This document shows, in pieces, positions 12,080 through 31,330 of a DNA stretch of 32,192 bases (position 1 is its first letter; each line of letters begins with the position of its first letter). The notes under the pieces are model-generated. The model was not told the origin of the DNA. It saw only the letters and a list, made by a program, of their open reading frames with translations, and did no database searches. A program made the translations under genes and the position numbers. The stretch lies in IMG/VR virus record IMGVR_UViG_3300025944_000008. One strand, 5' to 3'. This DNA is from a virus (lineage: Duplodnaviria > Heunggongvirae > Uroviricota > Caudoviricetes).

Positions 12080-12781
12080 TTGGTGGGAAGCCGATTCTTG
12101 ACAAAGAAGGAGGCGGCAAAGGTACTTGGCTGCAGCGAGCGAACCATCTTCTACAAGGTTCAGCGAGGGGAGTTGCGCACGGTGAAGAACGGCCACCGGG
12201 TAGACATCCTCGAGGAGGACGTCATCGCTCTCCGTGATTCTCAACGGAAGAGCGACGGAGAGAAAGCTCTTCCATTCGCTATCAACCGCCAGACGCTGAT
12301 GCGACTTCACACCGAGAATAGCATCCTCCGGCGTGACGTCGATCAGATCCTCCGAGTACTCAACATCCGAAAGGACCCGCTGAGGTTCACGGACTTGGAG
12401 ATTACCTCGTTGTACCAGATGGCCAATACATACGCCAGTGATGGTTGGCCGCCTCATGTCGAGGAGACTTGGGCCGGGTACCTCCAACGCATCGATGCGC
12501 AGCACTTCGGTCAGATCGAGAGGATGACCAAGGACTCACATCCCTGGCGCCCCTTCCTTCGACTTGCCTCGACAATGGCACTGCGCCCTTACAACACTGA
12601 GCTCTCTATCCAACTCTCGTCTGCCAGAGAGCACATGCAGATGATGACGAGTGTGTGGTTCGAGATAAAGCAAATCTCTCCTCGTCAGCTCGACGCAATG
12701 CTCAATCGAGAAGCCCGCCCCAGCAAGCGTTTGCTCAATAAGCTCGAGAGAAGGCAGAAAGAATACGCTGCAAAAAACTGA
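12080..12781 (+). CDS. Excisionase/MerR-like helix-turn-helix DNA-binding protein, 233 aa
   Basis: N-terminal FLTKKEAAKVLGCSERTIFYKVQRGELRTVKNGHRVDILEEDV matches the HTH_17-type pattern; SD AGGAGG before TTG/GTG. Confidence 0.8.
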   Translation: MVGSRFLTKKEAAKVLGCSERTIFYKVQRGELRTVKNGHRVDILEEDVIALRDSQRKSDGEKALPFAINRQTLMRLHTENSILRRDVDQILRVLNIRKDPLRFTDLEITSLYQMANTYASDGWPPHVEETWAGYLQRIDAQHFGQIERMTKDSHPWRPFLRLASTMALRPYNTELSIQLSSAREHMQMMTSVWFEIKQISPRQLDAMLNREARPSKRLLNKLERRQKEYAAKN

Positions 12782-12799
12782 AACGTCTCGGGATAAGAG
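12771..12799 (+). promoter_or_regulatory. Candidate phage promoter, site 1 (CAAAA-N16-GATAAG)
   Basis: CAAAA at 12771, GATAAG at 12792; identical spacing at 15867 and 31137. Confidence 0.6.
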
Positions 12800-12810
12800 G
12801 TGTGACGTGA

Positions 12811-12830
12811 ACGAACGTTTTTTCGTTCGT
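12811..12830 (+). promoter_or_regulatory. 5'-UTR hairpin ACGAACG-TTTTTT-CGTTCGT
   Basis: Perfect 7-bp inverted repeat between promoter site 1 and the ATG at 12853. Confidence 0.4.
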
Positions 12831-12852
12831 ACCCCTCACATGGAGACGACAG

Positions 12853-13224
12853 ATGGGAAACCAGCAGCAAGAGATGTCCTCGCTTCCGCAGCCACCCCGC
12901 CACGGCCTCAACAAGCAGGACATGGAGACTCTCCAGAACTTCTGCAAGGAGCACATCGACGAGATGGTGGAAGGCGCTCTGGACACCATCCCGGAGGCCA
13001 TCCGACAGTTCTCCATCAAGCCGGTACTCACGACTCGGCAGCGGGTGGCAGTCATCGGCAGCTATGCTGCGGTGGCCGTCGTGGGAGGCATCGTGGGTGG
13101 CCTGGCCTACAAGCGGCTGACGGACCGCAAGCAGCGCAAGGACACCGCGAAGGTCAACGAGGAGATGGAGAAGGAGTTCTCGGGTTCGACGAAGCTGCGG
13201 GCTGTGGGGGCACGCGTTTCGTAG
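12853..13224 (+). CDS. Single-pass membrane protein, 123 aa
   Basis: Hydrophobic VAVIGSYAAVAVVGGIVGGLAY followed by basic KRLTDRKQRK; SD GGAG; own promoter candidate and terminator. Confidence 0.8.
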   Translation: MGNQQQEMSSLPQPPRHGLNKQDMETLQNFCKEHIDEMVEGALDTIPEAIRQFSIKPVLTTRQRVAVIGSYAAVAVVGGIVGGLAYKRLTDRKQRKDTAKVNEEMEKEFSGSTKLRAVGARVS

Positions 13225-13240
13225 TTTCAAGGGGCAGCAC

Positions 13241-13269
13241 AGAACCAGGCAATTGCGCCTGGTTCTTTT
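13241..13269 (+). terminator. Rho-independent terminator at the convergent junction with terL
   Basis: 10-bp stem AGAACCAGGC/GCCTGGTTCT, 6-nt loop, short T run. Confidence 0.7.
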
Positions 13270-15109
13270 AGCTATTCGCCCTGGGAGTGATAGCCGGCGC
13301 CACGATATCTGGACGAGGGAAGTCCAGCATCGAGACGATGAAGCACAAGAGGGTGGAGTGGAACGAGTCGTCGCTGGCGTTGGGCGACTTCTTGTACTCG
13401 ATCATGCGCCGCTGCTCGTTGTACTCAGCGAAGATGTTCAGGAAGTCGCCGCCGAATGGCGCTTTGAACTGGTCCCACTGCGGGAAGCGGAAGACGTTGC
13501 GCCGCTTGATGGCGTTGAAGATGTCGCTCATCACTTCGCTACGGTTGACGAGGAATCGCTTGAGTCCGTCCTCCCAGCGAATCTTCTCGCCCGGATTCGA
13601 GTACTGGTACTTAACGATGCGGTTGAGGCCGAAGCGGTTGGTGAGCTTGTCGTTCGGCCAGAAGCCGCCGCCGTAGTCGACCCCGATCCTACGCACGTTC
13701 CACTTGAGGATGGTCTCGATGATCTCATCCATCTGCGTCTGAGGCTCAGCCTCGCGCCCCTCAAATCGACGGTAGTAGAAGACCTGGAACTTGCCGTCCA
13801 GATAGGCGCCCATCGTGAAGACGGTGAAGGAGTGCTCACCGCCACCCATCCAGTCGATGCCGCCGTAGATGGGTGTCGAACCGCCAAAGTGGTTCCTGTA
13901 CTTCTCGAGAGAGGCTGGATCAAGTGAGAGGTACTGCGAGCAGTTGTCGATCAAGTCCTGCTGAGTGAGGGGTCGAGTGCCCGAATCGTACGAGAGGCCG
14001 AGCACCTCATTGTAGAAACGATCGCGCGGGTAGGTCTTGAGGTTCTGGATGATGTCGTCGTGCGAAATCCACGGCACCATGAGCTGCGGGATGCGGAAGC
14101 CCTCATAGGGCTTGGGGATCTGATTGATGATGTCTGGGTTCAGAGACGCCCACTGCGCCATCGGATCCTTGGCGTCGATGGGGCCGCCGCACTTGTCGCA
14201 GATGAGGCTCTTTGCCCCGATGTGGTCCTCGGTGAGGATGTTCCAGTGGACCTTGGTGATCTTGCCGTCGCCCGTAAACATAGAGTGGGCGTGGCAGGGG
14301 ACCACCCATTCGTTCTGGGTGGAGTACTGCTGCCAATAGGCCTCGATTGTGTTGTCGAGGCTCTTGGGGGTGCCAGAGAAGATGAAGACACCGCCCTTGT
14401 GCGACTCACCGCCGATATTGATGACGGAGTGCGAAGCACACTGCTCGATAACGGGGATGTTGTCGGTGAGGATGTCCTGGAGCTCGTCGATGCAGATGAT
14501 GTCCGCCGGGATGCCGCGGCAGCGGTCGGCGTTCATGAAGGCGTAGCGGAGAGTGATCTGGGAGCGGTTGATGAACTTCTTGAGGAAGACGTTGTCCGAG
14601 AGCTTGGTGGTCGTCCAGCTCTTCAAGAATGGACTGGTCTCGATCGGCTCCTTCAGACGGTCCTGCGAGAAAACCTTCGATTGTTGGTTGGTCGGCGAGA
14701 CGTAGAGGCTGTTGAGGGCAGTGACGATGCAGGAGTAGGAAAGGAGCTTGTTGCCGAGCATGGTCGACTTCTCGACCTGTCGACCGCACTTCAGCAGGGT
14801 CCGCTTCGATGAGGTGTCGTAGATCTGGCGGAGGTACTCGCGCTCGGCAAAGGAGTAGTTCTTGTAGGTCTGATGCTCTTTGTCCGGCATCATGATCGCG
14901 AATTCGGTGAACTCCGAAGGGAGCACCGAGACGAGATCCTGGAGGTCCTTGAAGTCCTGTGCTCCGTACTCGTTGCCAGGATCCGGCTCGTAATCCCACT
15001 CTTCCGGGAACTCGGGACCAGAGTAGAGACCCTCATGATCCAGCAGCATTACGCGACGCTCTCGGTCGCGTTGGTAGGAGTGGAGATCCTCCACGATCTC
15101 GTAAGCCAT
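13268..15109 (-). CDS. terL: Terminase large subunit, 613 aa
   Basis: Walker A GRQVEKST, Walker B ICIDELQD, motif III FSGTP, Cys/His Zn-type insert (VVPCHAH...ICDKCGG), RNase H-like nuclease motifs YGGIDW, IGVDYGGG and DDSFHS. Confidence 0.93.
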   Translation of the reverse strand: MAYEIVEDLHSYQRDRERRVMLLDHEGLYSGPEFPEEWDYEPDPGNEYGAQDFKDLQDLVSVLPSEFTEFAIMMPDKEHQTYKNYSFAEREYLRQIYDTSSKRTLLKCGRQVEKSTMLGNKLLSYSCIVTALNSLYVSPTNQQSKVFSQDRLKEPIETSPFLKSWTTTKLSDNVFLKKFINRSQITLRYAFMNADRCRGIPADIICIDELQDILTDNIPVIEQCASHSVINIGGESHKGGVFIFSGTPKSLDNTIEAYWQQYSTQNEWVVPCHAHSMFTGDGKITKVHWNILTEDHIGAKSLICDKCGGPIDAKDPMAQWASLNPDIINQIPKPYEGFRIPQLMVPWISHDDIIQNLKTYPRDRFYNEVLGLSYDSGTRPLTQQDLIDNCSQYLSLDPASLEKYRNHFGGSTPIYGGIDWMGGGEHSFTVFTMGAYLDGKFQVFYYRRFEGREAEPQTQMDEIIETILKWNVRRIGVDYGGGFWPNDKLTNRFGLNRIVKYQYSNPGEKIRWEDGLKRFLVNRSEVMSDIFNAIKRRNVFRFPQWDQFKAPFGGDFLNIFAEYNEQRRMIEYKKSPNASDDSFHSTLLCFIVSMLDFPRPDIVAPAITPRANS

Positions 15110-15543
15110 TACATCCTCTCGAGGTAGTCGGCAGCAGACCGCAGCCGGGAAGGGTTATCCCTCAGGCAGCCGATTCCAGTGTTGCACCCGAAGCAAAGCA
15201 GCCCCCGGACTTTCTTCGTCTTGTGGTCGTGGTCCACGTTGAATCCCTGAAGTTTGCTCTTCACGGCCTTTGGGGCCTCTCCGCAGATGGCGCATTTGCC
15301 GTTCTGCTGTAGGACTAGTGCATCAAACTCTTCTATGGAGAGGCCGTAGCGTCTCTTGAATCGAGTATCCGTTTGTCGACGATGATTGGTCTTTCCCCAC
15401 TCAGTCGCTCGGTCGGCCGAGCAGCGCCTGCACCAGCAAATATAGCCTCGCTTGTCTGGACAGAAGAACTTAGCCGTAGCCGGCTTGTCTTTCTTGCACC
15501 GTGGACAAGTCTTAGTTCTTCGTGGGTAGCGGATCTTGTTCAC
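15109..15543 (-). CDS. Endonuclease VII-family HNH nuclease, 144 aa
   Basis: RYGLSIEEFDALVLQQNGKCAICG...VDHDHKTKKVRGLLCFGCNTGIG; N-terminal CxxC/CxxC; stop overlaps the terL ATG. Confidence 0.9.
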   Translation of the reverse strand: MNKIRYPRRTKTCPRCKKDKPATAKFFCPDKRGYICWCRRCSADRATEWGKTNHRRQTDTRFKRRYGLSIEEFDALVLQQNGKCAICGEAPKAVKSKLQGFNVDHDHKTKKVRGLLCFGCNTGIGCLRDNPSRLRSAADYLERM

Positions 15544-15587
15544 CGATTCCTCTACCAGGATCCTAACAAAGTCACTAGGATTTTGCC

Positions 15588-15920
15588 ATGCAACCCTCCC
15601 TCGCCTGGGTCCGAGAGTTCCATGCGTCGTTCAACAGAGCGGCTGACATCTCCTCGACGTACACCATCGAAGATACTGTCAACCCACTCATCAAGAACGT
15701 CATCTTCCATCTCAGAGAGCCACTCACTGGCGAGAACTACCGCCCCTTCCAGAATCTGGCGCACGGCTTCGCCAACGCGAATGACTGCGTCTTGCAGCGC
15801 ATATACAACCAGCCAGACAAACTAATCCTCGTCGTTGGAACGAAACGGCGCCTCGGACCTGTTCAGCAAAAGAATCCGCTGCTGAGCGATAAGCGAGGAC
15901 CGTTCACCAACAGAGGTTAG
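15588..15920 (+). CDS. Hypothetical protein, 110 aa
   Basis: Intact ORF divergent from the endonuclease gene, with typical codon use. Confidence 0.7.
   Translation: MQPSLAWVREFHASFNRAADISSTYTIEDTVNPLIKNVIFHLREPLTGENYRPFQNLAHGFANANDCVLQRIYNQPDKLILVVGTKRRLGPVQQKNPLLSDKRGPFTNRG
15867..15895 (+). promoter_or_regulatory. Candidate phage promoter, site 2 (CAAAA-N16-GATAAG)
   Basis: CAAAA at 15867, GATAAG at 15888, about 30 nt upstream of the ATG at 15924 (inside the end of the previous ORF). Confidence 0.55.
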
Positions 15921-15923
15921 CCA

Positions 15924-16160
15924 ATGCAAGTTCGAACAGTTTGGTCCAATGAGGGCTGCGAAGATGGCGATGTGCCGTGGTTGAAAGCTGCCGTCGATGA
16001 GTACACCGTCGACACACTAGGCGGCGAGCTACCCGAAGACTACCAGAAGGCTCTTGCGAACACCGCCAATCGCGAGCTGATCATCAACATCCCGGAGAAG
16101 GCCGTCCGAGATCTCTTCATTCCTCCTCACGTCGTCGGAAAGATCACCGAGGTGAAGTGA
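15924..16160 (+). CDS. Hypothetical acidic protein, 78 aa
   Basis: SD GAGG; its stop overlaps the rnhB start (TGATG). Confidence 0.7.
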   Translation: MQVRTVWSNEGCEDGDVPWLKAAVDEYTVDTLGGELPEDYQKALANTANRELIINIPEKAVRDLFIPPHVVGKITEVK

Positions 16161-16762
16161 TGCTGATCGCAGGTGTGGATGAAGTGGGTCGTGGTGCTCT
16201 TGCCGGTCCTCTGGTGGCCGCGTGCGCTCTCTTCAAGTTCGACGGTCAGGTGACGATGTCCAACCCTCCCATCGAGGGCCTGGCCGACTCGAAGTCATTC
16301 GCGACCGAGAGGAAACGAGAGGAGGTGTGGAAGCGCATCCTCACGTCGCCGTTCCTCCTCGATTTCGGGTTGGGCGAGTGCTCGGTGGAAGAGATCAACG
16401 AGAAGGGCATCAACTGGTGCAACGACGTTGTCTTCCAGAGGGCCATCGCCTGCCTCAAGCAGCCTCCCGACCTGATCTATGTGGACGGCGAGTACTCTAT
16501 CAGGGGCTGGCCAATCGACCGTCAGAGAGTGGAGCCCAAGGCAGATTCGAAGTACTGGCCCGTCTCAGCAGCCAGCATCCTCGCCAAGGTCATTCGCGAT
16601 CGGCTCATGAACGAGCTCGACAAGGAGTTCCCGAACTACGTGTGGGGGACGAACAAGGGCTACGGCTCGACGCTACACCAGGCCAGACTCAAGATGAATG
16701 GGGCGACTCCGCACCACCGCACTCAGTTCATCTCGAAGATCATCTCCCAAAAAGCTGGCTGA
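16160..16762 (+). CDS. rnhB: Ribonuclease HII
   Basis: AGVDEVGRGALAGP, DSK, YVDG, KADSKYWPVSAASILAKVIRD, NKGYG: the RNase HII signature motifs. ATG 16160 chosen (SD GAGGTG). Confidence 0.95.
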   Translation: MLIAGVDEVGRGALAGPLVAACALFKFDGQVTMSNPPIEGLADSKSFATERKREEVWKRILTSPFLLDFGLGECSVEEINEKGINWCNDVVFQRAIACLKQPPDLIYVDGEYSIRGWPIDRQRVEPKADSKYWPVSAASILAKVIRDRLMNELDKEFPNYVWGTNKGYGSTLHQARLKMNGATPHHRTQFISKIISQKAG

Positions 16763-17288
16763 CCCTCTGCCGGCTGCGGCCTGCCATCTTCGCCATCTCA
16801 TCGGCGTCGGAGATGTTGGGCGAGCCGAACCCCTCGGCCTCTTTTGTGTAGCCCATCGCCTTGCCCTTCGCATGGATGGCCTTCAGGGCGCCAGAATCGT
16901 GGTGCATCTTCGCGAAGCCCAGGGCGATCCCGTAGTGCTTCTTGTCGGGAATGGGGTACTTGCCCTTGTGACCCTCTTCTTCTTTCTTGGGCTGAGCGAA
17001 GTCGGTGCGCTCGCTCTGGGTGAGCTCGTGCGCCATCTTTGCGAGTGCTGACCCTCCCAAAGACAGACCAGTACCGATAGCGCCTCCGACGAGTGCTCGT
17101 TTCCCCGCACGGAGTGCATAGCTCTTCTCGTCGGTCTTTTTTCCAAATGGAGTACTCAGGGCACCGGTAAGAGCTCCAGCCCCTCCAATAAGAGGAGCGA
17201 TATCCCGAAACAGCCGCTTATTCGAATAAGCTGAGATCTTCTCAAACTCGTCGTAGAACCCATCCATGCGCGGCTCGAGGTAGCTCAT
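16740..17288 (-). CDS. Head-associated protein with Gly-zipper helices, 182 aa
   Basis: N-terminal GFYDEFEKIS motif, two Gly-rich hydrophobic segments, and a FAQP...KYPIPDKKH motif recalled from phage head proteins (unverified). Confidence 0.75.
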   Translation of the reverse strand: MSYLEPRMDGFYDEFEKISAYSNKRLFRDIAPLIGGAGALTGALSTPFGKKTDEKSYALRAGKRALVGGAIGTGLSLGGSALAKMAHELTQSERTDFAQPKKEEEGHKGKYPIPDKKHYGIALGFAKMHHDSGALKAIHAKGKAMGYTKEAEGFGSPNISDADEMAKMAGRSRQRVSQLFGR

Positions 17289-17842
17289 GGGGTCTCCAGA
17301 AGTCGGTCTAGGGTGTCGAAGACGCTGGCGGCGAGATCGTCAGCGAGCGGGTTGTCTGCATAGCCCGTCACGCGGACTGCCCAGGAGCTCATCGAGACTC
17401 CCACGTTGCCGCTGCCGCACTCTGGGCACTGCCCTGATGCGAAGTCCCCAGCCTCCCCCCAGTAGCGGCACAGGGGCTGAGTCGAAGCTGTCGTTGTGCC
17501 TACGTCGCCTTGGAAGCAGCGCCACACCTCATCGTGCTTCGCGGCTATCCGCTCCGGGTACTTGAAGCTGGCGAGCATCGCATCGCCCAGCTTGTCGCCG
17601 AAGGTCGGCAAGAGATCAGTCGTTCGGGGCCAGAAATGGTAGATGTAGCACCCATCTCTCTTGCCGACTTCGGCGACGTACTTTGGTCGCTCAACGCGGG
17701 TGTACTCGATCGCCTGCTCATATCCGCCGCCGACAAATTCGGCGAGTGGTTGAACTCCGGGCTTACCGAGCCCCTTCTTGAGGAGGGCGTCCATGGAAGC
17801 CATGGCGTCCTTTGCCTCGTCGAACGCCGCACGAGTCGTCAT
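17285..17842 (-). CDS. Hypothetical protein with a Zn-ribbon-like insert, 185 aa
   Basis: ATGA overlaps on both sides; C...C...CPECG. Confidence 0.75.
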   Translation of the reverse strand: MTTRAAFDEAKDAMASMDALLKKGLGKPGVQPLAEFVGGGYEQAIEYTRVERPKYVAEVGKRDGCYIYHFWPRTTDLLPTFGDKLGDAMLASFKYPERIAAKHDEVWRCFQGDVGTTTASTQPLCRYWGEAGDFASGQCPECGSGNVGVSMSSWAVRVTGYADNPLADDLAASVFDTLDRLLETP

Positions 17843-18726
17843 TTGTTCCCCTTCTTCTCAACCTTCTCTTCATCCGGTGCTTCGAGCAGCTTCGCCCCTG
17901 ACCCTGTGAAGTTACCATCTGGAGCCAGAGACCGCATATCCAGAACCTTCTTGCGAGCATGCTCCATGCGGAACTTCTCGAAGTTCTTGAGTGAATCCTT
18001 GACCAACGAGGTACCTTCTTGCATGCGCTCGTCGAGGAGGGCGGTAGCCTTGACGATGGTCGCCATCATCTTGGTCCGCGCCTCCGACTGCGGCTTGGCC
18101 TTCCACTCGAGGAAGTCGAAGTAGCTGGCCTCGAGCATCTCCTGCATGATGGCCTTCGCCTCGATCTCCTGTGAGAAGCCGGCTTGATGCATCGCCATCG
18201 CCGGGCCCACCTGCAGAATGGCCATCGTCTTGGAGCGCTGCGCATCTCTGTTCTGCAGGAGGATGGCCCACTCGTCGACTCGGAGAAGATCCACGTTCCA
18301 GTAGTAGTGACGATAGGCCTCGATCCCATCAGCAGTGAAGTGCTCCTCGAGGCGGGCATTCACTTTTTTAGCTATCGTGACGGAGTGGTGGTGGCCGAGG
18401 AGCAGCTCTTCGACCAGTGGCCTGGCGCGAAGGTGGACGGTGATCTTGCTCGCCTCATGGCTGGCTTCGTCGGGGTTGTGGAGGCCGTAGATCCCCTCCT
18501 GTCGCATGAAGCGAACACTGGGGCGGTGGAACCGATTGTGCGGTGTGAACTGAGCCGGGAGCTTCTGGTTGACTTCGTTCCTGAGCCACTGAAGGTAGTT
18601 CGGCTGCGTCTCAGGGAACCCAAGCATGGTCACCCACATGTTGACCATGGCGTCATCCTGCATTCGCGGGTCAGTCGTCGTGATGAGGAACTTGATGAAG
18701 TTCTCTGAAGGATGACGGATCGGCAT
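17839..18726 (-). CDS. Hypothetical protein, 295 aa
   Basis: Globular ORF coupled to its neighbours; no family recognised. Confidence 0.8.
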   Translation of the reverse strand: MPIRHPSENFIKFLITTTDPRMQDDAMVNMWVTMLGFPETQPNYLQWLRNEVNQKLPAQFTPHNRFHRPSVRFMRQEGIYGLHNPDEASHEASKITVHLRARPLVEELLLGHHHSVTIAKKVNARLEEHFTADGIEAYRHYYWNVDLLRVDEWAILLQNRDAQRSKTMAILQVGPAMAMHQAGFSQEIEAKAIMQEMLEASYFDFLEWKAKPQSEARTKMMATIVKATALLDERMQEGTSLVKDSLKNFEKFRMEHARKKVLDMRSLAPDGNFTGSGAKLLEAPDEEKVEKKGNK

Positions 18727-18731
18727 GGAGC

Positions 18732-20189
18732 CTATTGTGCTGCAGGCTGCTGCTGTTGTTCAAGTAGGGCCCGGAATTGTTGGATCAAGTTTTCCTTTTC
18801 CTGGGCCCTGGCGGCAAGGTACTCGTCGACCGATCCACCTGGCTTCTTGAGGCGCAGCTTCTCGAGAACGCCGGTTGGACGGCGAGTCGCCAAGAACCGC
18901 TGGACCTTCACATTCCGCTCTTCTGGGGGAAGCATCGCGTGGCTCTTGTAACGGATGCCACGACCCTCAACCTGCTTCAACTTCTCATCATTCCAGTGAG
19001 GCTCTAGCATCTGGATGAGTCGAGTGCCCTGCAGATCGAGACCTTCTCCACCGGCCGAAGAGAGCAAGAGGGCGCGAATTTTGTTCTCGTTGTACTGCCT
19101 GACGAGCTCGTCCCTCTTCGACTTCGGCATCTCACCGGTGAACTCGCCGTAGGGGATGCCAGCTTCTTGAAGCCTCTGGGCGTAGGGATTGATGCCTGCG
19201 CCGAGGTAGTTGGAGTAGACGACAGCCTTTGCCCTCTCGTTCGCGGCAAGCTCTTGCTGCAACCGAGAGAAGGCTTCGTCCAGCTTGGGCTCATAGACCT
19301 TCTTCACGTCCTCCTGAAAGGGAGCAGTGGAGTTGGCGATTTGCCGACTGGCCCCCAAGAAGGCGTTGAGCTGCTGGGATTCCCGCTTGCTGGGAGGCAG
19401 ACGAGAGCGGATCTTGGCCGACACCCAAGGTGGCGCCTTCTTCAGGATGGTGTCGTAGACCTCGAGCTGCTTCGGGTCCATCGGCACCTTGACGTCCTCA
19501 CGATTGACCTCGGGGAAGTCTTCCTTCGCAGACGGGTGATAGTCGACCCACTTGTCGAAGATGCCTTGAAGCTCTTCCTGGCGCTTGGGGTTCAGCTCTT
19601 CAACGACACCCGGCTTGAGGCCGCGGAGTCGATTGATGATGCCAGGGCTAATCTTCTTCTGACGAATGAACCTCTGATTGAACCGCTCCGGGTCCGTCGG
19701 AAGCAACGGCGCTCCAGAGGCGAGGTCTACGAGTGGCGCAATGTCAGACGGGCGGTTGTAGAATGGACTGCCGGTCAGAAGCAGGCGCTTCTCGGCCTCG
19801 TTCTTCGCCAGCGTCTTGTAGGTCTGCGTCTGAGGCTCACGAGCACGGTGAGCCTCGTCGACGATCATCAGGGGCTGCGTCGGAGCCTGACGCTTCCTCG
19901 TGATGTTCTGCATCGACTGGACATGAGCCTTCTGCTTGGCTCCGCCCAACCACTTCTTCTGCTCCTTGCGGTAATTCGCCTGGAGTGCTGCCGGAACGAT
20001 GACGTCCGACGGCATCTTGAGAGCCTTCTGAGCCTCGATCGCAGTTCTCGTCTTTCCAGAACCGAGACCGTGCGCCACCACCAAGCCCGGCTGGTCAGGC
20101 TGCTGGATACGATCGACAACACGCTGCTGATGGGGCTGTAGCCCTGCCACGCCCGCGATCTTCCCGAGGTTGGTAGCGAGACGACTCAT
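18732..20189 (-). CDS. SNF2-like superfamily 2 helicase/ATPase, 485 aa
   Basis: Q motif LQPHQ, Walker A HGLGSGKT, DEAH box, LLTGSP, SSAGGEGLDL, EPHWN, motif VI QVEGRGIRYKSH. Confidence 0.92.
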   Translation of the reverse strand: MSRLATNLGKIAGVAGLQPHQQRVVDRIQQPDQPGLVVAHGLGSGKTRTAIEAQKALKMPSDVIVPAALQANYRKEQKKWLGGAKQKAHVQSMQNITRKRQAPTQPLMIVDEAHRAREPQTQTYKTLAKNEAEKRLLLTGSPFYNRPSDIAPLVDLASGAPLLPTDPERFNQRFIRQKKISPGIINRLRGLKPGVVEELNPKRQEELQGIFDKWVDYHPSAKEDFPEVNREDVKVPMDPKQLEVYDTILKKAPPWVSAKIRSRLPPSKRESQQLNAFLGASRQIANSTAPFQEDVKKVYEPKLDEAFSRLQQELAANERAKAVVYSNYLGAGINPYAQRLQEAGIPYGEFTGEMPKSKRDELVRQYNENKIRALLLSSAGGEGLDLQGTRLIQMLEPHWNDEKLKQVEGRGIRYKSHAMLPPEERNVKVQRFLATRRPTGVLEKLRLKKPGGSVDEYLAARAQEKENLIQQFRALLEQQQQPAAQ

Positions 20190-20662
20190 CGATTGAGGAT
20201 GTGGAGCATCTCGTCCACAAAGGCCACCATGGCCGTCTTCGGGAACTTGGGATGCTTCTTGAACGCGTTGTAGGCGTCGATGAACTCTCGATACTTCTTG
20301 GCATCACCGCCGCGATCTGGATGGTGCTTGAGCGAGAACTCGCGGACGAGCTTCTTCACGTCCTTCTGCGACTTTACGCCTTTGAAGGCCGACGGGACTG
20401 CTTTGGGGAGTGCTGAGGCCGGCACTGTATGAACGGGAGTTGTGTACCCGACGAGACCGCCAGCGATTCCGCCAGCGAGCCCCATCTTCCACGCGTTTTT
20501 CTTTCTCTGCTCGGCATCATAGTGGTGCGTTACATCTCGCCACTGGTCATGCCAGGACTTCATCGTCAATCCACGGACGGCTCCGCCAGCACCGCCAGCA
20601 ACTGCCCCAACGCCGGTGAGGAAGGCACGTGGGTTAGTCTTGATGAAGTCACCGAGTCCCAT
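20186..20662 (-). CDS. Membrane-anchored-type J-domain (DnaJ-like) protein, 158 aa
   Basis: KKLVREFSLKHHPDRGGDAKKYREFIDAY (HPD at nt 20315-20323), preceded by two Gly-rich hydrophobic helices; ATG 20662 with SD AAGGAG. Confidence 0.85.
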   Translation of the reverse strand: MGLGDFIKTNPRAFLTGVGAVAGGAGGAVRGLTMKSWHDQWRDVTHHYDAEQRKKNAWKMGLAGGIAGGLVGYTTPVHTVPASALPKAVPSAFKGVKSQKDVKKLVREFSLKHHPDRGGDAKKYREFIDAYNAFKKHPKFPKTAMVAFVDEMLHILNR

Positions 20663-21482: not shown

Positions 21483-21592
21483 GGCTCCTTGGTCTTCTTC
21501 TTCGATGAAGCGTCGATGCGCTCGACGACCTTTCGGATCTCTGCTTGGATGTCGTCCATTTCCTTCGTACGATCGGCATCCGGCTTACTCAT
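21479..21592 (-). CDS. Small charged helical protein, 37 aa (MSKPDADRTKEMDDIQAEIRKVVERIDASSKKKTKEP)
   Basis: SD GGAGG; its TGA overlaps the GTG of the C39 gene; fills the operon gap. Not in the track. Confidence 0.65.
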   Translation of the reverse strand: MSKPDADRTKEMDDIQAEIRKVVERIDASSKKKTKEP

Positions 21593-21607
21593 GAGAGACC
21601 TCCTGGG

Positions 21608-23626: not shown

Positions 23627-23627
23627 G

Positions 23628-24776
23628 TTAGACCTTCACCTTCGGGTTCTGGTGGTTTTTGGGAATCATCGAGAGGATGCCAGGGTTCGCAGCGACGAGA
23701 GTGCCGAAGGGCGTCGTCACTGGAGTTCCAAGCTGAGCAGCGACTGCAGCGATGAACTGGATGAAGTCAGGAGAGTTGCGCAAGACGGGCCATTGCGCCA
23801 AGTCGATATCGATCCCCGCTGTGCCCTTGAGCACCAGCTTCTGCATGGCCTGGATCGTCATCGCGTCGTCCGTCTTGATTCCCATCGCCTTTGTGCTGTG
23901 GAGATCCATCGAGTCTTGGCTATCGAGCGACATCGCCTTGTTCGACGAGACCGAGACTTTGCCCTGCTTCGCTTGGAGCGTCAGGTCACCTGAGTTGAGC
24001 ACCAAGGAGTAGTTCTTTTCCATGGTCCAGTTGACGTTGCCGTCCTTGTCGAAGGTGAGCCCTATCTTGACGTCTCCTCCACCTTTATCGCGGGTTTGCA
24101 GCGTCAGGATAGTCTTGTCACCGTCGCCATGGGAACCGATTTTGAGGAGGGCGACCGTCTTGTCATTGGAGTCGTCCGCGAACTCTTTGGCGGCGATTTG
24201 GTACAGACACTTCTGGTGCCCGTCGGAATCTTCATCCTTCCTCTGCACCTGCCATGTGAGGTCACCAGCCGGGGTGTGGAGCTCGTAGTTCTCGGCGAAG
24301 TCCTGCATCACGTTTCGAATGGGTAGGAAGATGCGCTGGCAGATGGGAGTAGAGCCGATCTGAACGATCCCTCCTCGACGGAGAGTGACGAAGTTCAGGT
24401 CTCTTGTCTTGAGCTCGATGTCTCCAGGATTGAGAAGAGAGCGCCCACCACGATAGCTGCCGCCCTCATCCACCACAGACCAGCCAAGAACGAAGCTCTC
24501 TCGTCCGTCTTCTGAAGGCTCACAGACCCAGCAAACCGACCCGACTTCCGGCATCCAGTTGATGCCCTCTCCCTGGTTCTGATTCACGTAGGGAGAGATG
24601 AAGGGGATGTCGAACTTCACCGTATAGGGCGCAGCCTCCATTCGGGTGTCCACCGTGTAGTCCCGAATGTTGACGTTGACGACACGGCCCCGATAAACGG
24701 AAACGTCGCGAAGATCCGTCGTCGCCGTGGAGGACGAGCGCTTCTTGGGGAAGGCGTCTACAGCGCGTCTGCTCAT
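23628..24776 (-). CDS. Putative baseplate central spike/hub protein (gp5/gpV-like OB fold plus beta-helix), 382 aa
   Basis: N-terminal GRVVNVN...IPFISPY...GINWMPEVGSVCWV resembles the gpV/gp5 OB-fold pattern; the C-terminal region has short beta-strand repeats (SLDSQDSMDLHSTKAMGIKTDDAMTIQA). Confidence 0.65.
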   Translation of the reverse strand: MSRRAVDAFPKKRSSSTATTDLRDVSVYRGRVVNVNIRDYTVDTRMEAAPYTVKFDIPFISPYVNQNQGEGINWMPEVGSVCWVCEPSEDGRESFVLGWSVVDEGGSYRGGRSLLNPGDIELKTRDLNFVTLRRGGIVQIGSTPICQRIFLPIRNVMQDFAENYELHTPAGDLTWQVQRKDEDSDGHQKCLYQIAAKEFADDSNDKTVALLKIGSHGDGDKTILTLQTRDKGGGDVKIGLTFDKDGNVNWTMEKNYSLVLNSGDLTLQAKQGKVSVSSNKAMSLDSQDSMDLHSTKAMGIKTDDAMTIQAMQKLVLKGTAGIDIDLAQWPVLRNSPDFIQFIAAVAAQLGTPVTTPFGTLVAANPGILSMIPKNHQNPKVKV

Positions 24777-24778
24777 GA

Positions 24779-27700
24779 TTAGTAGTGGTGCGGATTCTCT
24801 TTGGTGCCCTTGCCGAACTCCGCACCGAAGACATAGGCGGGAACGGGGTTGGGCCCGTGGATGTTGCTCTTCCAGCCTCGAGACGCACCCTCGAGAATGG
24901 TCTGCCGCAAACGCTCGAAGTTGAGACGCGCCATCCAGTCTTCGTGCTGGTCGAGGGCGACCTGCTCCGCCGAGCGAATAACTGGCTTTGCGATGATCGG
25001 CTTCTCATCGGGCTTCAGGCTGCGGTTGTGCTCATCCACCACAGTGCGAAGGACGAGGTCTCCGTGCAGGTGTGCCGAATCGCCCGGATCCTCGACGCGA
25101 GCGAGGTTGGTCAGAGAGCGCACTACTGTCTCGATGTTGCGGCGCTTGACGTGCTCGTCCTTGTACACATCGTTGTGTAGGCTGTTCGTGACGTAGTTCT
25201 GCACATTGTGGATGTCGGTCAGCGGCAAGAGCTCGCGGGGATTGATGGGGCCGTCCGACAGCGCGTGGCCCGGGAAGACTTTGTCGCCCACAGCGACGGT
25301 GACCTTGTTGACGGCCGGGACGTAGTGCCGTTCCCCGCCGATGTGGATGTAGTGACCGTTCGTCGCCTTGTCGTGCTCGATCCGAGACACGGTCCCTTCC
25401 ATGGTGGATAGGGTAGCAGAGTGCGACAGGATCTTGGGGACATTGAGAAGCTGGTTCAGTCGAGTGAACTTGTCGACCGCACCGGCGCCTCGAGACGCCG
25501 CGACGCCACCGGTGTGGAACGAGTCCATGGCGAGCTGCGTCGCTGGCTCACCAAGAGCGTGTCCGGCGATCACGCCGATGTTGGTGCCGACTTCGTGGAA
25601 GTGTCCGTTCTCACTGAGTCCGTAGCACTTGGCGCACAGGCCCTGCCCGTGGGCGCACTTCAGAGGAGACCGCACGATGATCTTGTCGACGCCGTGCTTC
25701 TGCAGAGTTGCCGTCACCTCTGGAGTGATGATCGTGCCAGGAGCGAGCGTGTGCTTACCCACTTTCGCTTCCTTGGCCAGAACTCGATCCTGGATCTCCA
25801 CGTCGGCCACATTCATCGTGATGCCGTTCTTGGTACCGCAATCGTTCGAGACGATCAGCGTCGGCATCATGACGTTAGCAACGTCTTTGGTGAGAGCTCC
25901 AGGCTCAGAGGTACCTTCGACCTTCTGCAGGGTACCCATGCGGGCGCCGTGGAGAGACGTCCAGTAGTCACCGACGTCGAGACCCTCCGCATAGCTCTTC
26001 TTGACCGGAGTGGGGATGGTGCCGCCAGCGCCGTCCTTCATGAGCATCGGAGCCATGGTGATCTGGCGGAACTGCGGCGTCGAGCCGCGAGCACCGGAGT
26101 ACACCATCGTGTAGATCTTGTTGTCCGTCTTCTCGAAGTGCGGCAGGAGCTCCTTCTCGAGCTCATCGGTCGCCATCGAGTAGATCTTCACCAGCTTGGC
26201 GTCCTTCTCTTCCTTCGAGAGCTTGCTGGACCTGATCTTTCCCGCCTCGACATCGTAGGGGTGGAGGATGTGATCACGCAGCCCCTTCTGAACATCAAGG
26301 TCCTTCAGACCGAAGGAGAACCCCGCTTCGTAGGAGTAGTTGTTACCCAAGTCCTTCAGCTTGTCGACGGTGAGGGCGAAGCTCTTCGGGTCCTGGCGGG
26401 CCAGGTTACCCAGGAGCTGCTTCACGTTCTTCTTCTTGAGCGTGAACTTCGAGTCGTGCAGAAGTTCCTCGTTGGCCTTGAAGCCGTCTGGGAAGTAGCT
26501 ATTGATTGTCATGCGGCCGAGCGTCGTCTTCTTGCCACCGATGGTGAAGACGTCGTTCATGCCAAGAGCACCTCTGTCCTTCGCCTTCTGTGCTTCGAGG
26601 AAGTTGGGAAATGTCTTACCAGTCTCCTTGCCCCACTTCGTCAGAAGGTGAAGACCGAGCAGTGACTCCTGCGTCGGCTGGTACATGATGTCGCCGCTGG
26701 TCGAGCTGAAGAGGTTGTTCGACGGGAACATCTTGTGGGACTCCTTGACTGCCTCGTCCGTGAGCGGGACGAAGACGGACATGGTGTCGCCGTCGAAGTC
26801 AGCGTTGTAGCCAGCGGTGACCAGCGGGTGGATCTGGATGGCCTTGCCCTCGACCATCTTCGGCTTGAAGGCCATGATCGAGAACTTGTGCAGAGCCGGG
26901 TCTCGCTTGAGGAGGACCGGGCGCTTGTCCATCGCCTTCTCGAGCGCCTTCCAGGCGATGTCCCTATTCTCCTTCACCGCCTTCAGCGCATTGACCGGGT
27001 TGAGGCCGACCTGACCCAGCTCTCGCACGACGAAAGGCTTGTAGAGCTCCATCGCCGCTTCCTTCGGTAGGCCCACGTAGTCGAGGTGCATGGCCGGCTC
27101 CGGGATGATGGTGGAGCGCATGGAGAGCTCCTGCCGGCGCTTCATGAGCCGCTTCTGGAAGTAGCCTTGCTTCGGCTGATCGCCAGCAACGACGTCGAGG
27201 ATGCCCTTCATCGGGCGGTTCGACTCGTAGACCGGACGCCCACCGAGGCCAGCGTAGGCCCTCATGGCGTCGTAGAGCTGCTCGCGGACGTTCCTCTCCG
27301 AGGCACCGCCGAGCTCCTTGACCGGGTTCTTCAGACGATCGTTGAGGAGACCGATGGCGTGGTAGTACTGGTTGATGTCGTCGTAGCGCAGTGAACCATC
27401 CGGCATCGGAACAATGGGCCGGAACGCCGGCGGCAGCACCGGCAGGTAGTTCATCATGTACGCTTCGTGCGGCTTCATGTTGAGCTTGTCGAGAGCGATG
27501 AGGTAGCGCGCCTTCTTGTTGGCCTTGTTGAGCGCGTCCTTCTTCAGCTTCGGGAGCTCAGCGAGCGTCTTCTTCAGCTCGGCCTTGACGTCGATCTTCT
27601 TGAGAAGATTGTTGATTGCGATACCACCTGTCTCGCCGTTGGGCAGGGCCTTCTTGCCCTTCGCAACCGCTTCGAAGTCTTCATACCGAAGACCGGATAG

Positions 27701-30700
27701 GATGACGGCCGGGCCGAGCTGCGACTTGCTCGAGCCGACGAACACCGGATTGGGAACCGGCTCGGCCATCTTGATGTGAGACCAGAAGAGTCCCTTGCCC
27801 TTGTCATCCGGCAGGCCGCCGGTGATCTTCGGGTCGAAGAGGCCCTTCTCCAGCTCCTTGGCATCTTTGCCACGGAGCATGCGACCAGCGTCTTTGATCT
27901 CGCCGTGCGAGAGAGCGAGCACGCCCTTGTCAGTCAACGGCATGAGCTGGAGCTCGTTGCCTTGCTTCTGGATGTTGACGCCGAGGCCGGTGAGCAGGTT
28001 CTCGAACTTCTTGTACGCGAACGTCGGGCGAGGAGCCGGCAGCGGCTGGCCCGTGCGGACGCGATCCCAGAAGTCGGTGTGATTCATGTCGTCGAGATTG
28101 TCCCCGAGGTGCTGGTCGGCCTTGTAGGTGGCCATCTCGCGAAGGTTGTGGCGCGCTCCGTGAGCGAGCAGAGCGTAGAACTCGAGCTGCCCCAGGCCCT
28201 GGCCGGGGTGCTCCGCACCTGTGCCCTTGGGAGCGTGGTCGACGGTGTAGGAACCACCGCCCTGTCGACCTCCGCTTCGGACGGCGAGCTTCTTCTCGAC
28301 CTGGTGCTTGAGCTTGAAGATGTACTGATTGCCCGTCAGTACGTCTCCGAGCTTCTTGCCGTTGGTCGGATCGAAGAGCGTTTCTTGATCGCTGATGCCA
28401 TTCTTCGCCAAGTCTTCTTTCACCTTGCTGGTGTAGTCGACGTGCGGCCCGGCGAAGTTGGTGACGACATAGGGCTTGCCCGTCTTCTCGGCGACCTTCG
28501 AGGCGGCTGTCTCGAGCATCTGACCGAGGTTGATGCGGGTCGGGACGCCGGATGGGTTCATGAGGACCTGGACGTGCTGGCCATCTGCGCCACCGATGCG
28601 AGGCATCTCGTGGTCGGGCAGGATGCGGGTGATGATGGCCTTGTTGCCGTGTCGGCCGACGATCTTGTCACCGACCTCGGCGGACTCGAGCGTCTTGACG
28701 TGAACGACGGCTCCCTTGTTGTTCGGGAGCTTGACGACCTTCACCACCTCACCCGGGTGGTCGGAATCCCAGACCACGCTTCGGTCTTGGAGATTGAAGG
28801 CCTTCTTCGACAGACGACTCATCAACCGACCAGTCTCGCCGGCGTAGTCCTTCTTGCCCACTGCTGCAACGAGGATGTCTCCCGGCTCGACCCGCTGACC
28901 GACTCGAATCAGACCGTCCGTCCCGATCTTGGACATCTGGTCCTTCGTCAGCTTCTTTGACATCGTGCTGGCGAAGGCGATGAACCTCGACTTCGAGATC
29001 TCGTCCCTCTCGGGATCTGTCTCGAGCGTCCGACGGTGCAAGTGCTCCGACGTCAGCTTCTTTGCTGCTGAGTCGGAGATGACGATGCCGTCCTCGAAGT
29101 TGTACCCCTTGTACGGTAAATACGCGACGCGAAGGTTCGTTCCAAGGGACAGAGAGCCCTGCCGTGTGAAGTTGGTGTCGGCGAGGGTCTGCCCCTTCTT
29201 CACCGAATCGCCGACCTTCACAAGCGGCGTCGAGTGGATGAAGGTCTTCGAGTCGTTGAGCGGGAAGTGGTTGTAGATCTGCTCCTCGTGTCGCTTGCCG
29301 GCCGCGTCCTGAATGACGATAGCCTCAGCGTGGCCGTTCTCCTTGCTGGTCTTGATCTCCACCACCTTGCCGTCGTGATGAGCATTGTGGGACCAGTCGA
29401 GACCGGTGAGCTTCTCCCAGGTCTGAGACCCGCCTGCCAAAACCTGAACGAGAGGCTGCTCGCGATTGTGCAGAGAGACGGCCTGCGTGCCCTGGCGGGA
29501 CGCGGTCATCGTGCGGTTGCCCTGGTTGTTCTGCAGGAACGGGATGAGGTTGGTCGCCTCATCGTAGAGCTGCGAGGGCTGAACAACGAGGTAGCGAGCC
29601 TCGGAGAAAGGCTTCTCCAGCATCTCGTGTGTTATCGGGTCCTTCATCTTCACGAGGTCCGCAATCGGATGCGGGCGCCCGTCCCTGATGACGACCTGAT
29701 CTGGCAGCAGCACGTTCTCTCGGTGTAGCTCGGCCGGCGTGACCTTGGCGAACTGCTTCGCCTTCAGATCATAGACCTGCATGATGGGGTCGTTGCCCCT
29801 CTTCTTGACGCCGATGGGCAAGTGCAGAGTGATACCGGTGCGCTCCGACTCCGGCGTGTGGATCGGATCGAGATAGCCGAAGTGCGAGGGGTTGATGAGC
29901 TTCATGTCGGGCGTAACCGACTGCTCCTTCTTGATACCGCCCTCCTCGGCCATGATCGTCGTCGCTCGATGATTCGAGATCATCTCGAGCGGGTTCACCT
30001 GCTCCGGGTTCTTCGAGAGCATGGAGCTCGTGAAGAACTCCTTGATGGGGCGATTGAAGAGGTCGCCGGAGATGATGTCGCGAACCTTATCCTGCCGGTC
30101 GATGTTGTTGCCGACTTTTCCAGCAAGGGTCCGCTTCATCTTGGACTTGGTGAGCTGCTCGTGCAGGAAGTCGTCCGTTCCGTGCAGTGTCTTGAAGACG
30201 AGTGAGTTGCGATCGTCCTGTGGGATATCGCCCTTGGTCACTCCAAGAATCCGCTGCGAGCCCAGCAGCAAAGCTTCCCCGTTGACGTGGTCGAACGGCT
30301 TGCCGAAGACGAGCTTCGTCATCTCTGGCAACAAACCCGTCTTGTGGAACTCGGCAACAACGGCAGAGGCCTTCTGGTCGTAGGTTAGGCCTTGCAGTTG
30401 CTGCTTCGAGTTCTTGGTGATCTTCGCGTAGAGCTCTTCAATGTCCTTCTCCGGGTGCTTCGGGACATTGGCCTTGTAGATGTCCTCGCCCCACGCCTTC
30501 TTCATATCCTCGTCTTGAACGCCGAGAACCTTGAGAACGGAGTAGAGCGGAGGGTGATAGGTGCCCCACTGGAACTGAAACTTGCGAGACTCTGGATCGA
30601 ACGGGATCTTGATACGAGGCTTACCCGCGAACGGCTTGGCGAGGTTGAACTCGGTCTCCATTTCGCCGTTCTGCTTGATGTGGGCGTAGACGCCCGAACG

Positions 30701-31048
30701 CAGGCGCCAGAGGCTATCCACCTGCCACTCGGATCCGTCGACGATGTAGCTGTAGCGGTTGGTGGGCTTGGGGAGAGTCATGACCTTGATCTTGGTTCGA
30801 TCGAGCTCATGTCCCGTGGCTTTGTCGATCAGGCTCACGTCGGCGAAGACGTTCGCGCCCCAGGTCTTCTTCTGATCCTTCGCTTGCTCCTGAGAGCGGA
30901 TGTCATCTCTCGGTGCGCCACTATCATCGAAGGAGAGATTGTGAAGAACCAACTTCTTCGCTCTTCCTTCGAAGGGGAAGTAGCTCTTCACTGCTGACTC
31001 GACACGCTCTTGGAGGGACTTCCAGGTCTCTGCTGGGGTACCGGCCAC
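24779..31048 (-). CDS. rpoBC: DNA-directed RNA polymerase, fused beta-beta' single polypeptide (~2089 aa)
   Basis: Beta motifs in order: HFGYLDPIHTPES, LIPFLQNNQGNR, GYNFEDGIVIS, GDKIVGRHGNK, NPSGVPTRINLGQ, YIFKLKH, GQGLGQLEFYAL. Beta' motifs in order: GLFDPKITG, LPVLPPAFRP, VLLKRDPALH, YNADFDGD (nt 26786-26806), SGARGS, C...CAKCYG, GEPATQLAMDSFHTGG. No stop between the halves. Start moved to GTG 31048 (SD AAGGAG). Confidence 0.95.
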   Translation of the reverse strand: MAGTPAETWKSLQERVESAVKSYFPFEGRAKKLVLHNLSFDDSGAPRDDIRSQEQAKDQKKTWGANVFADVSLIDKATGHELDRTKIKVMTLPKPTNRYSYIVDGSEWQVDSLWRLRSGVYAHIKQNGEMETEFNLAKPFAGKPRIKIPFDPESRKFQFQWGTYHPPLYSVLKVLGVQDEDMKKAWGEDIYKANVPKHPEKDIEELYAKITKNSKQQLQGLTYDQKASAVVAEFHKTGLLPEMTKLVFGKPFDHVNGEALLLGSQRILGVTKGDIPQDDRNSLVFKTLHGTDDFLHEQLTKSKMKRTLAGKVGNNIDRQDKVRDIISGDLFNRPIKEFFTSSMLSKNPEQVNPLEMISNHRATTIMAEEGGIKKEQSVTPDMKLINPSHFGYLDPIHTPESERTGITLHLPIGVKKRGNDPIMQVYDLKAKQFAKVTPAELHRENVLLPDQVVIRDGRPHPIADLVKMKDPITHEMLEKPFSEARYLVVQPSQLYDEATNLIPFLQNNQGNRTMTASRQGTQAVSLHNREQPLVQVLAGGSQTWEKLTGLDWSHNAHHDGKVVEIKTSKENGHAEAIVIQDAAGKRHEEQIYNHFPLNDSKTFIHSTPLVKVGDSVKKGQTLADTNFTRQGSLSLGTNLRVAYLPYKGYNFEDGIVISDSAAKKLTSEHLHRRTLETDPERDEISKSRFIAFASTMSKKLTKDQMSKIGTDGLIRVGQRVEPGDILVAAVGKKDYAGETGRLMSRLSKKAFNLQDRSVVWDSDHPGEVVKVVKLPNNKGAVVHVKTLESAEVGDKIVGRHGNKAIITRILPDHEMPRIGGADGQHVQVLMNPSGVPTRINLGQMLETAASKVAEKTGKPYVVTNFAGPHVDYTSKVKEDLAKNGISDQETLFDPTNGKKLGDVLTGNQYIFKLKHQVEKKLAVRSGGRQGGGSYTVDHAPKGTGAEHPGQGLGQLEFYALLAHGARHNLREMATYKADQHLGDNLDDMNHTDFWDRVRTGQPLPAPRPTFAYKKFENLLTGLGVNIQKQGNELQLMPLTDKGVLALSHGEIKDAGRMLRGKDAKELEKGLFDPKITGGLPDDKGKGLFWSHIKMAEPVPNPVFVGSSKSQLGPAVILSGLRYEDFEAVAKGKKALPNGETGGIAINNLLKKIDVKAELKKTLAELPKLKKDALNKANKKARYLIALDKLNMKPHEAYMMNYLPVLPPAFRPIVPMPDGSLRYDDINQYYHAIGLLNDRLKNPVKELGGASERNVREQLYDAMRAYAGLGGRPVYESNRPMKGILDVVAGDQPKQGYFQKRLMKRRQELSMRSTIIPEPAMHLDYVGLPKEAAMELYKPFVVRELGQVGLNPVNALKAVKENRDIAWKALEKAMDKRPVLLKRDPALHKFSIMAFKPKMVEGKAIQIHPLVTAGYNADFDGDTMSVFVPLTDEAVKESHKMFPSNNLFSSTSGDIMYQPTQESLLGLHLLTKWGKETGKTFPNFLEAQKAKDRGALGMNDVFTIGGKKTTLGRMTINSYFPDGFKANEELLHDSKFTLKKKNVKQLLGNLARQDPKSFALTVDKLKDLGNNYSYEAGFSFGLKDLDVQKGLRDHILHPYDVEAGKIRSSKLSKEEKDAKLVKIYSMATDELEKELLPHFEKTDNKIYTMVYSGARGSTPQFRQITMAPMLMKDGAGGTIPTPVKKSYAEGLDVGDYWTSLHGARMGTLQKVEGTSEPGALTKDVANVMMPTLIVSNDCGTKNGITMNVADVEIQDRVLAKEAKVGKHTLAPGTIITPEVTATLQKHGVDKIIVRSPLKCAHGQGLCAKCYGLSENGHFHEVGTNIGVIAGHALGEPATQLAMDSFHTGGVAASRGAGAVDKFTRLNQLLNVPKILSHSATLSTMEGTVSRIEHDKATNGHYIHIGGERHYVPAVNKVTVAVGDKVFPGHALSDGPINPRELLPLTDIHNVQNYVTNSLHNDVYKDEHVKRRNIETVVRSLTNLARVEDPGDSAHLHGDLVLRTVVDEHNRSLKPDEKPIIAKPVIRSAEQVALDQHEDWMARLNFERLRQTILEGASRGWKSNIHGPNPVPAYVFGAEFGKGTKENPHHY

Positions 31049-31106
31049 GATAATCTCCTTGCAGCCCTCTGCCTGACGGCAATCTCCGGGCCGACCAAGT
31101 GCCTCC

Positions 31107-31135
31107 AGCGTAGGCAGAAGACGATCCGACGTCAA
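31107..31135 (-). promoter_or_regulatory. Sigma70-like promoter upstream of the RNAP gene
   Basis: TTGACG (31135-31130), 17-nt spacer, TACGCT (31112-31107), with an AT-rich tract upstream. Confidence 0.55.
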
Positions 31136-31136
31136 A

Positions 31137-31165
31137 TAAAACCTAGAGATTGCCGGAGATAAGAG
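31137..31165 (+). promoter_or_regulatory. Candidate phage promoter, site 3 (TAAAA-N16-GATAAG)
   Basis: TAAAA at 31137, GATAAG at 31158, upstream of the small-gene cluster that starts at 31204. Confidence 0.6.
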
Positions 31166-31329: not shown

Positions 31330-31330
31330 C

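Follow-up and report, generated by a model that had tools for sequence, protein, structure and literature searches.

Which enzyme reads a two-part DNA motif that recurs along the genome of an uncultured jumbo phage from soil is the question raised by a 32,192-nucleotide stretch of a caudoviral genome (IMG/VR record IMGVR_UViG_3300025944_000008), the whole of which is called the window here. The original prediction was that YAAAA-N16-GATAAG, at three plus-strand sites, is a promoter for the RNA polymerase (RNAP) encoded by the phage, acting with an unknown specificity factor, or for a phage or alternative sigma factor. The three sites are present as described: CAAAA at 12771 with GATAAGAG at 12792 (site 1), CAAAA at 15867 with GATAAGCG at 15888 (site 2) and TAAAA at 31137 with GATAAGAG at 31158 (site 3). 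Comparison of sequences points to their being copies of the main phage-specific promoter of the sigma-70 family type in this phage, read by the phage's own sigma factor, probably on the phage RNAP, and the probability of this reading is put at about 60%.

An oriented two-part element between genes

The virus record to which the window belongs has a length of 210,330 bp, direct terminal repeats and a guanine-cytosine (GC) content of 59.6%. A simple caller based on codon bias and ribosome-binding sites finds 259 genes, which cover 87.6% of the genome, and 12.6% is intergenic. YAAAA-N16-GATAAG has three matches in the window, all on the plus strand, and none in 100 dinucleotide-preserving shuffles, while the whole genome holds four exact copies, on one strand, and no copy of the reversed control pattern. 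A G stands two bases before GATAAG at sites 1, 2 and 3, and the next plus-strand start follows after 55 nt at site 1 (ATG 12853), 30 nt at site 2 (ATG 15924) and 40 nt at site 3 (ATG 31204). A lack of further oriented intergenic copies had been named as the outcome that would tell against a promoter; what is found is that 40 of the 48 copies of the core G-N-[G/T]ATAAG are intergenic (binomial p ~1e-28) and that 40 of 41 intergenic copies face the adjacent gene (p ~4e-11). When all k-mers are ranked by intergenic enrichment, GATAAG is the first of the hexamers, with 46 of its 63 copies between genes, and GAGATAAG is intergenic in 21 copies out of 21. The first base of the hexamer tolerates T and sometimes C (G-N-TATAAG has six intergenic copies and no coding one), the last base is G in all copies, and the variants GATAAT and GATAAA are never intergenic.

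The placement of the copies follows the direction of the genes. At least one productive copy occurs in 13 of the 19 divergent regions, often in both directions, and in none of the 15 convergent regions. Regions between window-plus-strand genes carry a copy in 22 of 40 cases and those between minus-strand genes in two of 39. The copies sit 15–100 nt upstream of start codons and, at the sites with short leaders (read by eye), the Shine-Dalgarno sequence lies at least 5 nt past the hexamer, as expected if transcripts begin 6–7 nt downstream. The position matrix reads c(-4) g(-3) G(-2, in 34 of 38) r(-1) GATAAG a(+6) r(+7), with the consensus c-g-G-r-[G/T]ATAAG-a, followed by a T and then a purine 5–7 nt after the hexamer and preceded by an A-rich patch at -20 to -18.

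The bipartite layout of the motif stands, but the identity given to its upstream box does not. The informative part is G-C-A-A at -22 to -19 from the hexamer, with the consensus G(C/A)AA(A), and the YAAAA reading is an accident of sites 1–3. The start of GCAA falls at -22 in 12 sites, and no other offset has more than two. An unbiased scan of all dyads made of a 4-mer, a spacer of N16-19 and a 5-mer gives GCAA-N19-ATAAG as the top intergenic dyad, and GCAA-N17-19-[G/T]ATAAG has 14 copies against 0.4 expected (Markov simulations, maximum 3). The two boxes keep a near-fixed spacer of 16–19 bp, and the same register recurs in two other phage records (G003 and G006) and in the TerL loci described below. 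Sites 1 and 2 belong to the GCAA subclass, each with GCAAAA, and site 3 has only ATAAAA. GCAA accompanies four of six TATAAG variants versus six of 33 GATAAG sites (p = 0.03), which suggests that the two boxes compensate for each other.

Position, orientation, spacing and phylogenetic footprinting give good support to the -35/-10-like promoter that had been proposed, and the motif is, as also proposed, no match to the sigma-70 consensus, since the hexamer ends in G rather than T and the upstream box is GCAA and not TTGACA-like; the strict sigma-70 consensus has no match in the DNA around sites 1 and 2. In the proposed mechanism, c-g-G-r-[G/T]ATAAG-a would be a -10-like element in which the G at -2 takes the place of the G of the extended -10 'TGn', G-(C/A)-A-A-(A) would be an optional -35-like element with 16–18 bp between the boxes, and transcription is predicted to start 6–7 nt past the last G of the hexamer. 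The genes preceded by GATAAG copies include those for an MVP homologue, a WGR-PARP protein, ThyX, AAA/vWA proteins, a ResIII helicase, DnaB, DNA ligase, class II ribonucleotide reductase, a DnaJ-kinase and RNase HII. The virion operons, with the major head protein, TerL, an InPase-domain virion protein, RNAP and sigma, are without the motif, and some of them bear TTGACN-N17-TAnnnT promoters instead. Some 40 non-structural genes, with roles in replication, nucleotide metabolism and takeover of the host, appear to have the promoter thus defined in front of them.

It is improbable that the motif is no promoter at all but an oriented site for a regulator, for example the HTH_17 protein encoded at 12083–12781, or an RNA-level signal for processing or translation placed before ribosome-binding sites. 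Many copies do lie between co-directional genes and 5–8 nt before a Shine-Dalgarno sequence, and the HTH gene is conserved beside site 1 in 18 loci. However, most of the divergent regions, which must hold promoters, contain the motif, often for both directions, the second box at a fixed spacing of ~17 bp has the geometry of the sigma-70 family, many copies directly follow terminator-like hairpins, and no conserved RNA structure is found. An RNA element was also considered for its own sake and rejected, as no Rfam family is present in the window and no consensus structure emerges among the site-1 orthologues, and the stability of a hairpin after site 1 does not exceed that of its shuffles (z = -0.3).

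Promoters of the sigma-28 type (FliA/SigD/WhiG) have the consensus TAAA-N15-GCCGATAA, and the phage element resembles them in being bipartite, with an A-rich upstream box and with GATAA in the downstream box at nearly the same distance. The phage sigma factor discussed below likewise has weak matches to the FliA/WhiG and SigB/F/G models. Nevertheless, that a host alternative sigma of this type reads the motif is scarcely credible. The upstream box is G(C/A)AA, not TAAA, c-g-G-r stands before GATAAG where GCCGATAA has GCC, the 3' G is invariant and the spacing is about one base off. Moreover, the motif is conserved in phages of 41–64% GC and tracks the phage-encoded sigma, which falls far below every NCBIfam cut-off and is no FliA orthologue. 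The promoter serves non-structural genes of the phage, and dependence of ~40 genes, those of replication included, on a flagellar sigma would be odd.

The fourth exact copy of YAAAA-N16-GATAAG, at C1:16663-16689 (-), lies 75 kb past the window end and has a GCAAAA box and a T at -2. It begins at the ATG of a minus-strand gene and faces a 158-nt gap between two minus-strand genes, where it would serve an uncalled small open reading frame (ORF) or a non-coding or antisense RNA.

Conservation at the orthologous sites

TerL (13268–15109, minus strand) lies between sites 1 and 2, and 27 metagenome loci with TerL relatives of 57–100% identity form the footprinting set. Relatives with 57–81% TerL identity retain both boxes where their counterparts of sites 1 and 2 lie, and the spacers are unconserved at both sites. 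The DNA of the window from 12000 to 17000 has no match among GenBank phages.

At site 1 the -35-like box GCAAAA (12770–12775, plus strand; -22 to -17 from the hexamer start) overlaps the HTH gene at its final codons and stop, and the extended -10-like element G-G-GATAAG-A occupies 12790–12798 (plus strand), with a transcription start predicted at about 12803–12804. An orthologue of the site is found in nine of 18 loci, where the corresponding box lies, by its coordinates, in intergenic DNA. Only ctG(C/A)AAA, G-GATAAG and T-G-A at 6–8 nt past the hexamer are conserved in a gap-free alignment; G stands at -22 in eight of the nine sequences and A at -20 and -19 in all nine.

Site 2 is not intergenic, contrary to the earlier description, and falls within the final codons of a conserved 110-aa gene (15588–15920, plus strand) that has tblastn homologues in 26 loci. 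Its -35-like box GCAAAA (15866–15871, plus strand) is inside conserved K-N-P codons, and G-C-GATAAG-C follows at 15886–15894 (plus strand), with a predicted start at about 15899–15900. Of the 21 loci with enough sequence, 18 have the orthologue, G-N-KATAAG on the strand opposite that of TerL, mostly ~340–430 nt before the TerL start and in many loci directly 5' of RNase HII. Depending on the relative, the hexamer encodes Asp-Lys, contains the stop codon (GA-TAA-G) or lies past the stop, and since it is kept in all three frame contexts, protein coding cannot explain its conservation. In five of the loci (L061, L059, L071, L068 and L076) GATAAG supplies the stop of the 110-aa gene, as GA-TAA-G or TGA-TAAG, and one hexamer would be both stop codon and promoter element.

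Site 3 combines a weak A-rich upstream box, ATAAAA (31136–31141, plus strand), with G-A-GATAAG-A (31156–31164, plus strand), a perfect match to the genome-wide extended core. In the divergent region that precedes the RNAP gene, loci L007 and L009 retain the hexamer and G003 has CATAAG in its place. The upstream box abuts the reverse complement of TTGACG from a divergent promoter of the RNAP gene, and the conserved CGTCAA 5' of site 3, once considered as the -35 box of the GATAAG promoter, is that same reverse complement and was rejected in that role.

A candidate sigma factor and its probable core enzyme

For the specificity factor left unnamed in the original prediction, a candidate is at hand in a sigma factor that has regions 2, 3 and 4 and co-occurs with the motif, and that may act on the core enzyme of the phage or of the host. 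The sigma-70-family protein of ~272 aa is encoded at 32560–33378 of the genome record, ~58 kb past the window end, in one open frame, with weak Pfam matches to regions 2 and 4 and with region 3 above the Pfam cut-off. Its matches to the NCBIfam models for SigB/F/G, RpoD-C-terminal and FliA/WhiG fall far short of the cut-offs, and its residues 64–270 align to RpoS structures (E = 1e-7), so far as sequence goes a group-3-like sigma. More than 160 homologues are known at 50–85% identity, several of them on contigs of 160–211 kb. A search of IMG/VR with the single sigma sequence returns no homologues, and a search with an alignment returns four records that hold one.

All four of these records contain GCAA-N17-19-KATAAG, with 0–1 copies of the reversed control per record. 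The forward/reverse counts of the motif are 14/0 in G003 (199 kb, 56% GC, sigma identity 60%), 4/0 in G004 (191 kb, 60%), 0/3 in G005 (137 kb, 56%) and 2/5 in G006 (134 kb, 41% GC, 34%). De novo analysis of the intergenic DNA gives the consensus gcAaaa-N16-cgGagATAAGaa in G003 and GTGATA and TGATAA as the top hexamers in G006. The sigma factors of G006 and of the phage studied here (G000) share an identical region-4.2 stretch, GQIAK...IHPSKVSRI. The reader of the promoter would be the 272-aa sigma, with region 2/3 on GnGATAAG and region 4.2 on GCAA.

The core enzyme is probably, and with less certainty, the RNAP of the phage, a single chain of 2089 aa with fused beta and beta' parts (24779–31048, minus strand), in which a Pfam Rpb2_6 match (2e-61) is followed by Rpb1 domains 1–5, with NADFDGD at residues 1415–1421 and the beta' clamp helices at about residues 1215–1270. 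Orthologues of 61–63% identity occur in IMG/VR. Among the sigma-bearing records, G003, G004 and G006 (72–95% complete) encode the fused RNAP and G005, a 65%-complete fragment, does not. Fragments G001 and G002 carry the RNAP but show no sigma, which is uninformative as they are only 15% and 32% complete. GCAA-N17-19-KATAAG is not enriched in phage Arash or Vibrio phage D181, whose RNAPs are distant. The orthologue in locus L009 (5946–13829) is longer, at 2627 aa, and its insertion of ~540 aa could be an intein or a homing element.

A second class of promoter is found 5' of the RNAP gene, where the divergent sigma-70-like sequence TTGACG-N17-TACGCT (31107–31135, minus strand) has TTGAC(G/T) and TACnCT boxes conserved in four phages. 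TTGACN-N16-18-TAnnnT has five copies in the genome, four of them intergenic (0.6 expected), and all four precede window-minus-strand genes or operons; the operon of the sigma gene is headed by TTGCTC-N18-TAGAAT, as read by eye. Sigma-70-like promoters at the RNAP and sigma genes fit expression by the host enzyme, and the phage RNAP may not yet be there when infection begins. In the proposed mechanism the GATAAG promoter would drive the non-structural genes and the host holoenzyme would serve the virion operons, with the phage RNAP possibly delivered in the virion, like the RNAP and sigma of Arash. That Arash beta, beta' and sigma are in virions, and that both genes here stand among virion genes behind host-type promoters, suggests a virion-delivered holoenzyme for early and middle genes.

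An alternative is that the phage sigma reads the promoter on the core enzyme of the host, as T4 gp55 and SPO1 gp28/gp34 do, and that the fused RNAP acts at some other signal or stage. This is rather unlikely. The phage sigmas so far characterised redirect the host core (reviewed in PMC7824862 and PMC13282480), regions 2–4 of the sigma align with bacterial RpoS, and no homologue of the alpha subunit was found for an enzyme made of phage parts only. On the other hand, of the four relatives that have both the motif and a sigma homologue, the three that are 72–95% complete encode the fused RNAP, the fourth being a 65%-complete fragment; the motif is unchanged across phages of 41–64% GC, which probably infect different hosts; and Arash virions hold the sigma together with beta and beta'.

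Several points weigh against sites 1–3 being phage promoters read by the phage sigma on the phage RNAP. An alpha-subunit homologue (PF01000) is found nowhere in the genome, and the RNAP and sigma genes themselves lie behind sigma-70-like promoters. Co-occurrence of motif, sigma and RNAP in one clade could be joint inheritance and does not assign the reader. The upstream box is present in about one third of the copies in this genome and absent from about two thirds, the boxless copies bearing the full extended core GnGATAAG, notably in a dense cluster 13–33 kb before the window. At site 2 that box overlaps the conserved K-N-P codons, so that constraint on the protein may account for its conservation, and it does not count as separate evidence. 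A simple custom gene caller underlies the intergenic counts, which makes them approximate.

Phage sigma factors with private codes include T4 gp55 (TATAAATA), SPO1 gp28 and gp33/34 (late -10 GATATT) and phiEco32 gp36. As in those phages, a phage sigma would here give a private consensus unlike TTGACA/TATAAT that marks one temporal class of genes. Those sigmas use the host core, whereas this phage also has a full single-chain RNAP, and its promoter marks non-structural rather than late genes with another consensus. The phage-sigma context in SPO1 is described in PMC13401047, and reviews up to 2026 present the RNAPs of jumbo phages as sigma-less and split, and phage sigmas as hijackers of the host core in phages without an RNAP (PMC7824862, PMC13282480).

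Arash and the Vibrio phages D181, D148 and D69 have a bacterial-type RNAP ~30% identical to this one and a sigma, with the genes among virion genes (PMC10585845). Mass spectrometry shows the beta, beta' and sigma proteins of Arash to be abundant in its virions (PMC10585845). Its beta and beta' are separate genes, and the motif, as noted, is not enriched there or in D181. The RNAPs of phiKZ and AR9 are split into four to five polypeptides and have no sigma-70-family subunit, and the AR9 promoter is a single short element, AACA-N6-TW on the template strand, without -35/-10 geometry (PMC5449584, PMC7598289). These too are jumbo phages with a cellular-type RNAP of their own and short private promoter motifs; the phage studied here departs from them in having a single-chain RNAP with the usual Rpb2/Rpb1 Pfam domains, a sigma gene and a two-part motif. 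A 165-kb river phage has an analogous system with a different consensus, TAAA-N15-GGTCATAA.

Coliphage N4 has a three-stage programme, with single-subunit T7-like RNAPs and hairpin promoters. It offers a possible parallel, here drawn from sequence motifs alone, in which a phage polymerase would act on early and middle genes and host sigma-70 on the virion operons, that of the packaged polymerase included. Extended to the whole clade of uncultured phages of 130–210 kb, the picture is a tentative one, with an alpha-less single-chain RNAP and its sigma packaged in the virion and reading early and middle GCAA-N18-GATAAG promoters, and host sigma-70 reading the virion operons, including those of RNAP and sigma, from TTGACN-N17-TAnnnT. 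If true, it would be an N4-like inverted programme built of cellular-type parts.

A search of the accessible literature found no relevant phage paper with GATAAG, none describing this consensus and none tying YerA41 to promoters; for phages with a bacterial-type RNAP and a sigma, including Arash and the Vibrio phages, no description of a promoter was found. Such phages were recognised only recently (Arash, 2023). The promoter consensus with its ~40 natural variants, the second promoter class of sigma-70-like type and the candidates for sigma and one-chain core make it possible to ask directly in vitro, for a large uncultured clade, how this RNAP finds its genes and which enzyme transcribes which of them. 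The consensus also aids annotation by parting non-structural from virion transcription units, and the promoter and sigma may find use as an orthogonal pair.

Genes and signals around the sites

Many GATAAG copies in the dense cluster, which extends from ~13 to ~33 kb ahead of the window (with copies, for instance, 25451 and 23787 letters ahead of position 1), follow a GC-rich hairpin and then TTCTTAGCT or CTCTTTAGC. TCTTAGCT is intergenic 11 times on the strand of the cluster and twice on the opposite strand. The hairpin with its following signal may be a termination signal peculiar to these phages. In G003, TAGCT stands directly 5' of GCAA boxes.

The gene downstream of site 1 (12853–13224, plus strand) encodes 123 aa without a family match. 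Upstream, the gene at 12083–12781 (plus strand) encodes a 232-aa protein whose N-terminal domain is HTH_17/excisionase-like and which has a weak match to sigma region 4_2. It is conserved just 5' of the site-1 promoter in 18 relatives and is a possible transcription regulator. Site 2 is followed, within 15924–16762 (plus strand), by a 78-aa ORF (15924–16160) and RNase HII (16160–16762; Pfam RNase_HII, 7e-32). The unit after site 3 (31204–31807, plus strand) consists of a 41-aa ORF without homologue and a 128-aa ORF (31421–31807) conserved in L007 and L009. The latter begins 257 nt from the site-3 hexamer and ~90 nt past the 41-aa ORF, and L007 has a similar gap of ~310 nt. The interval would be a long leader or else a small gene that has escaped recognition.

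Between TerL and the 110-aa gene, a 144-aa ORF (15109–15543, minus strand) has CxxC and DHDH...GCNxG motifs and is endonuclease VII/HNH-like by eye. It is found only in the near-identical locus L053 and is absent from the other TerL loci. Site 2 is 779 nt from TerL here, and its orthologue is ~340 nt away in loci without this ORF, which looks like a mobile homing endonuclease.

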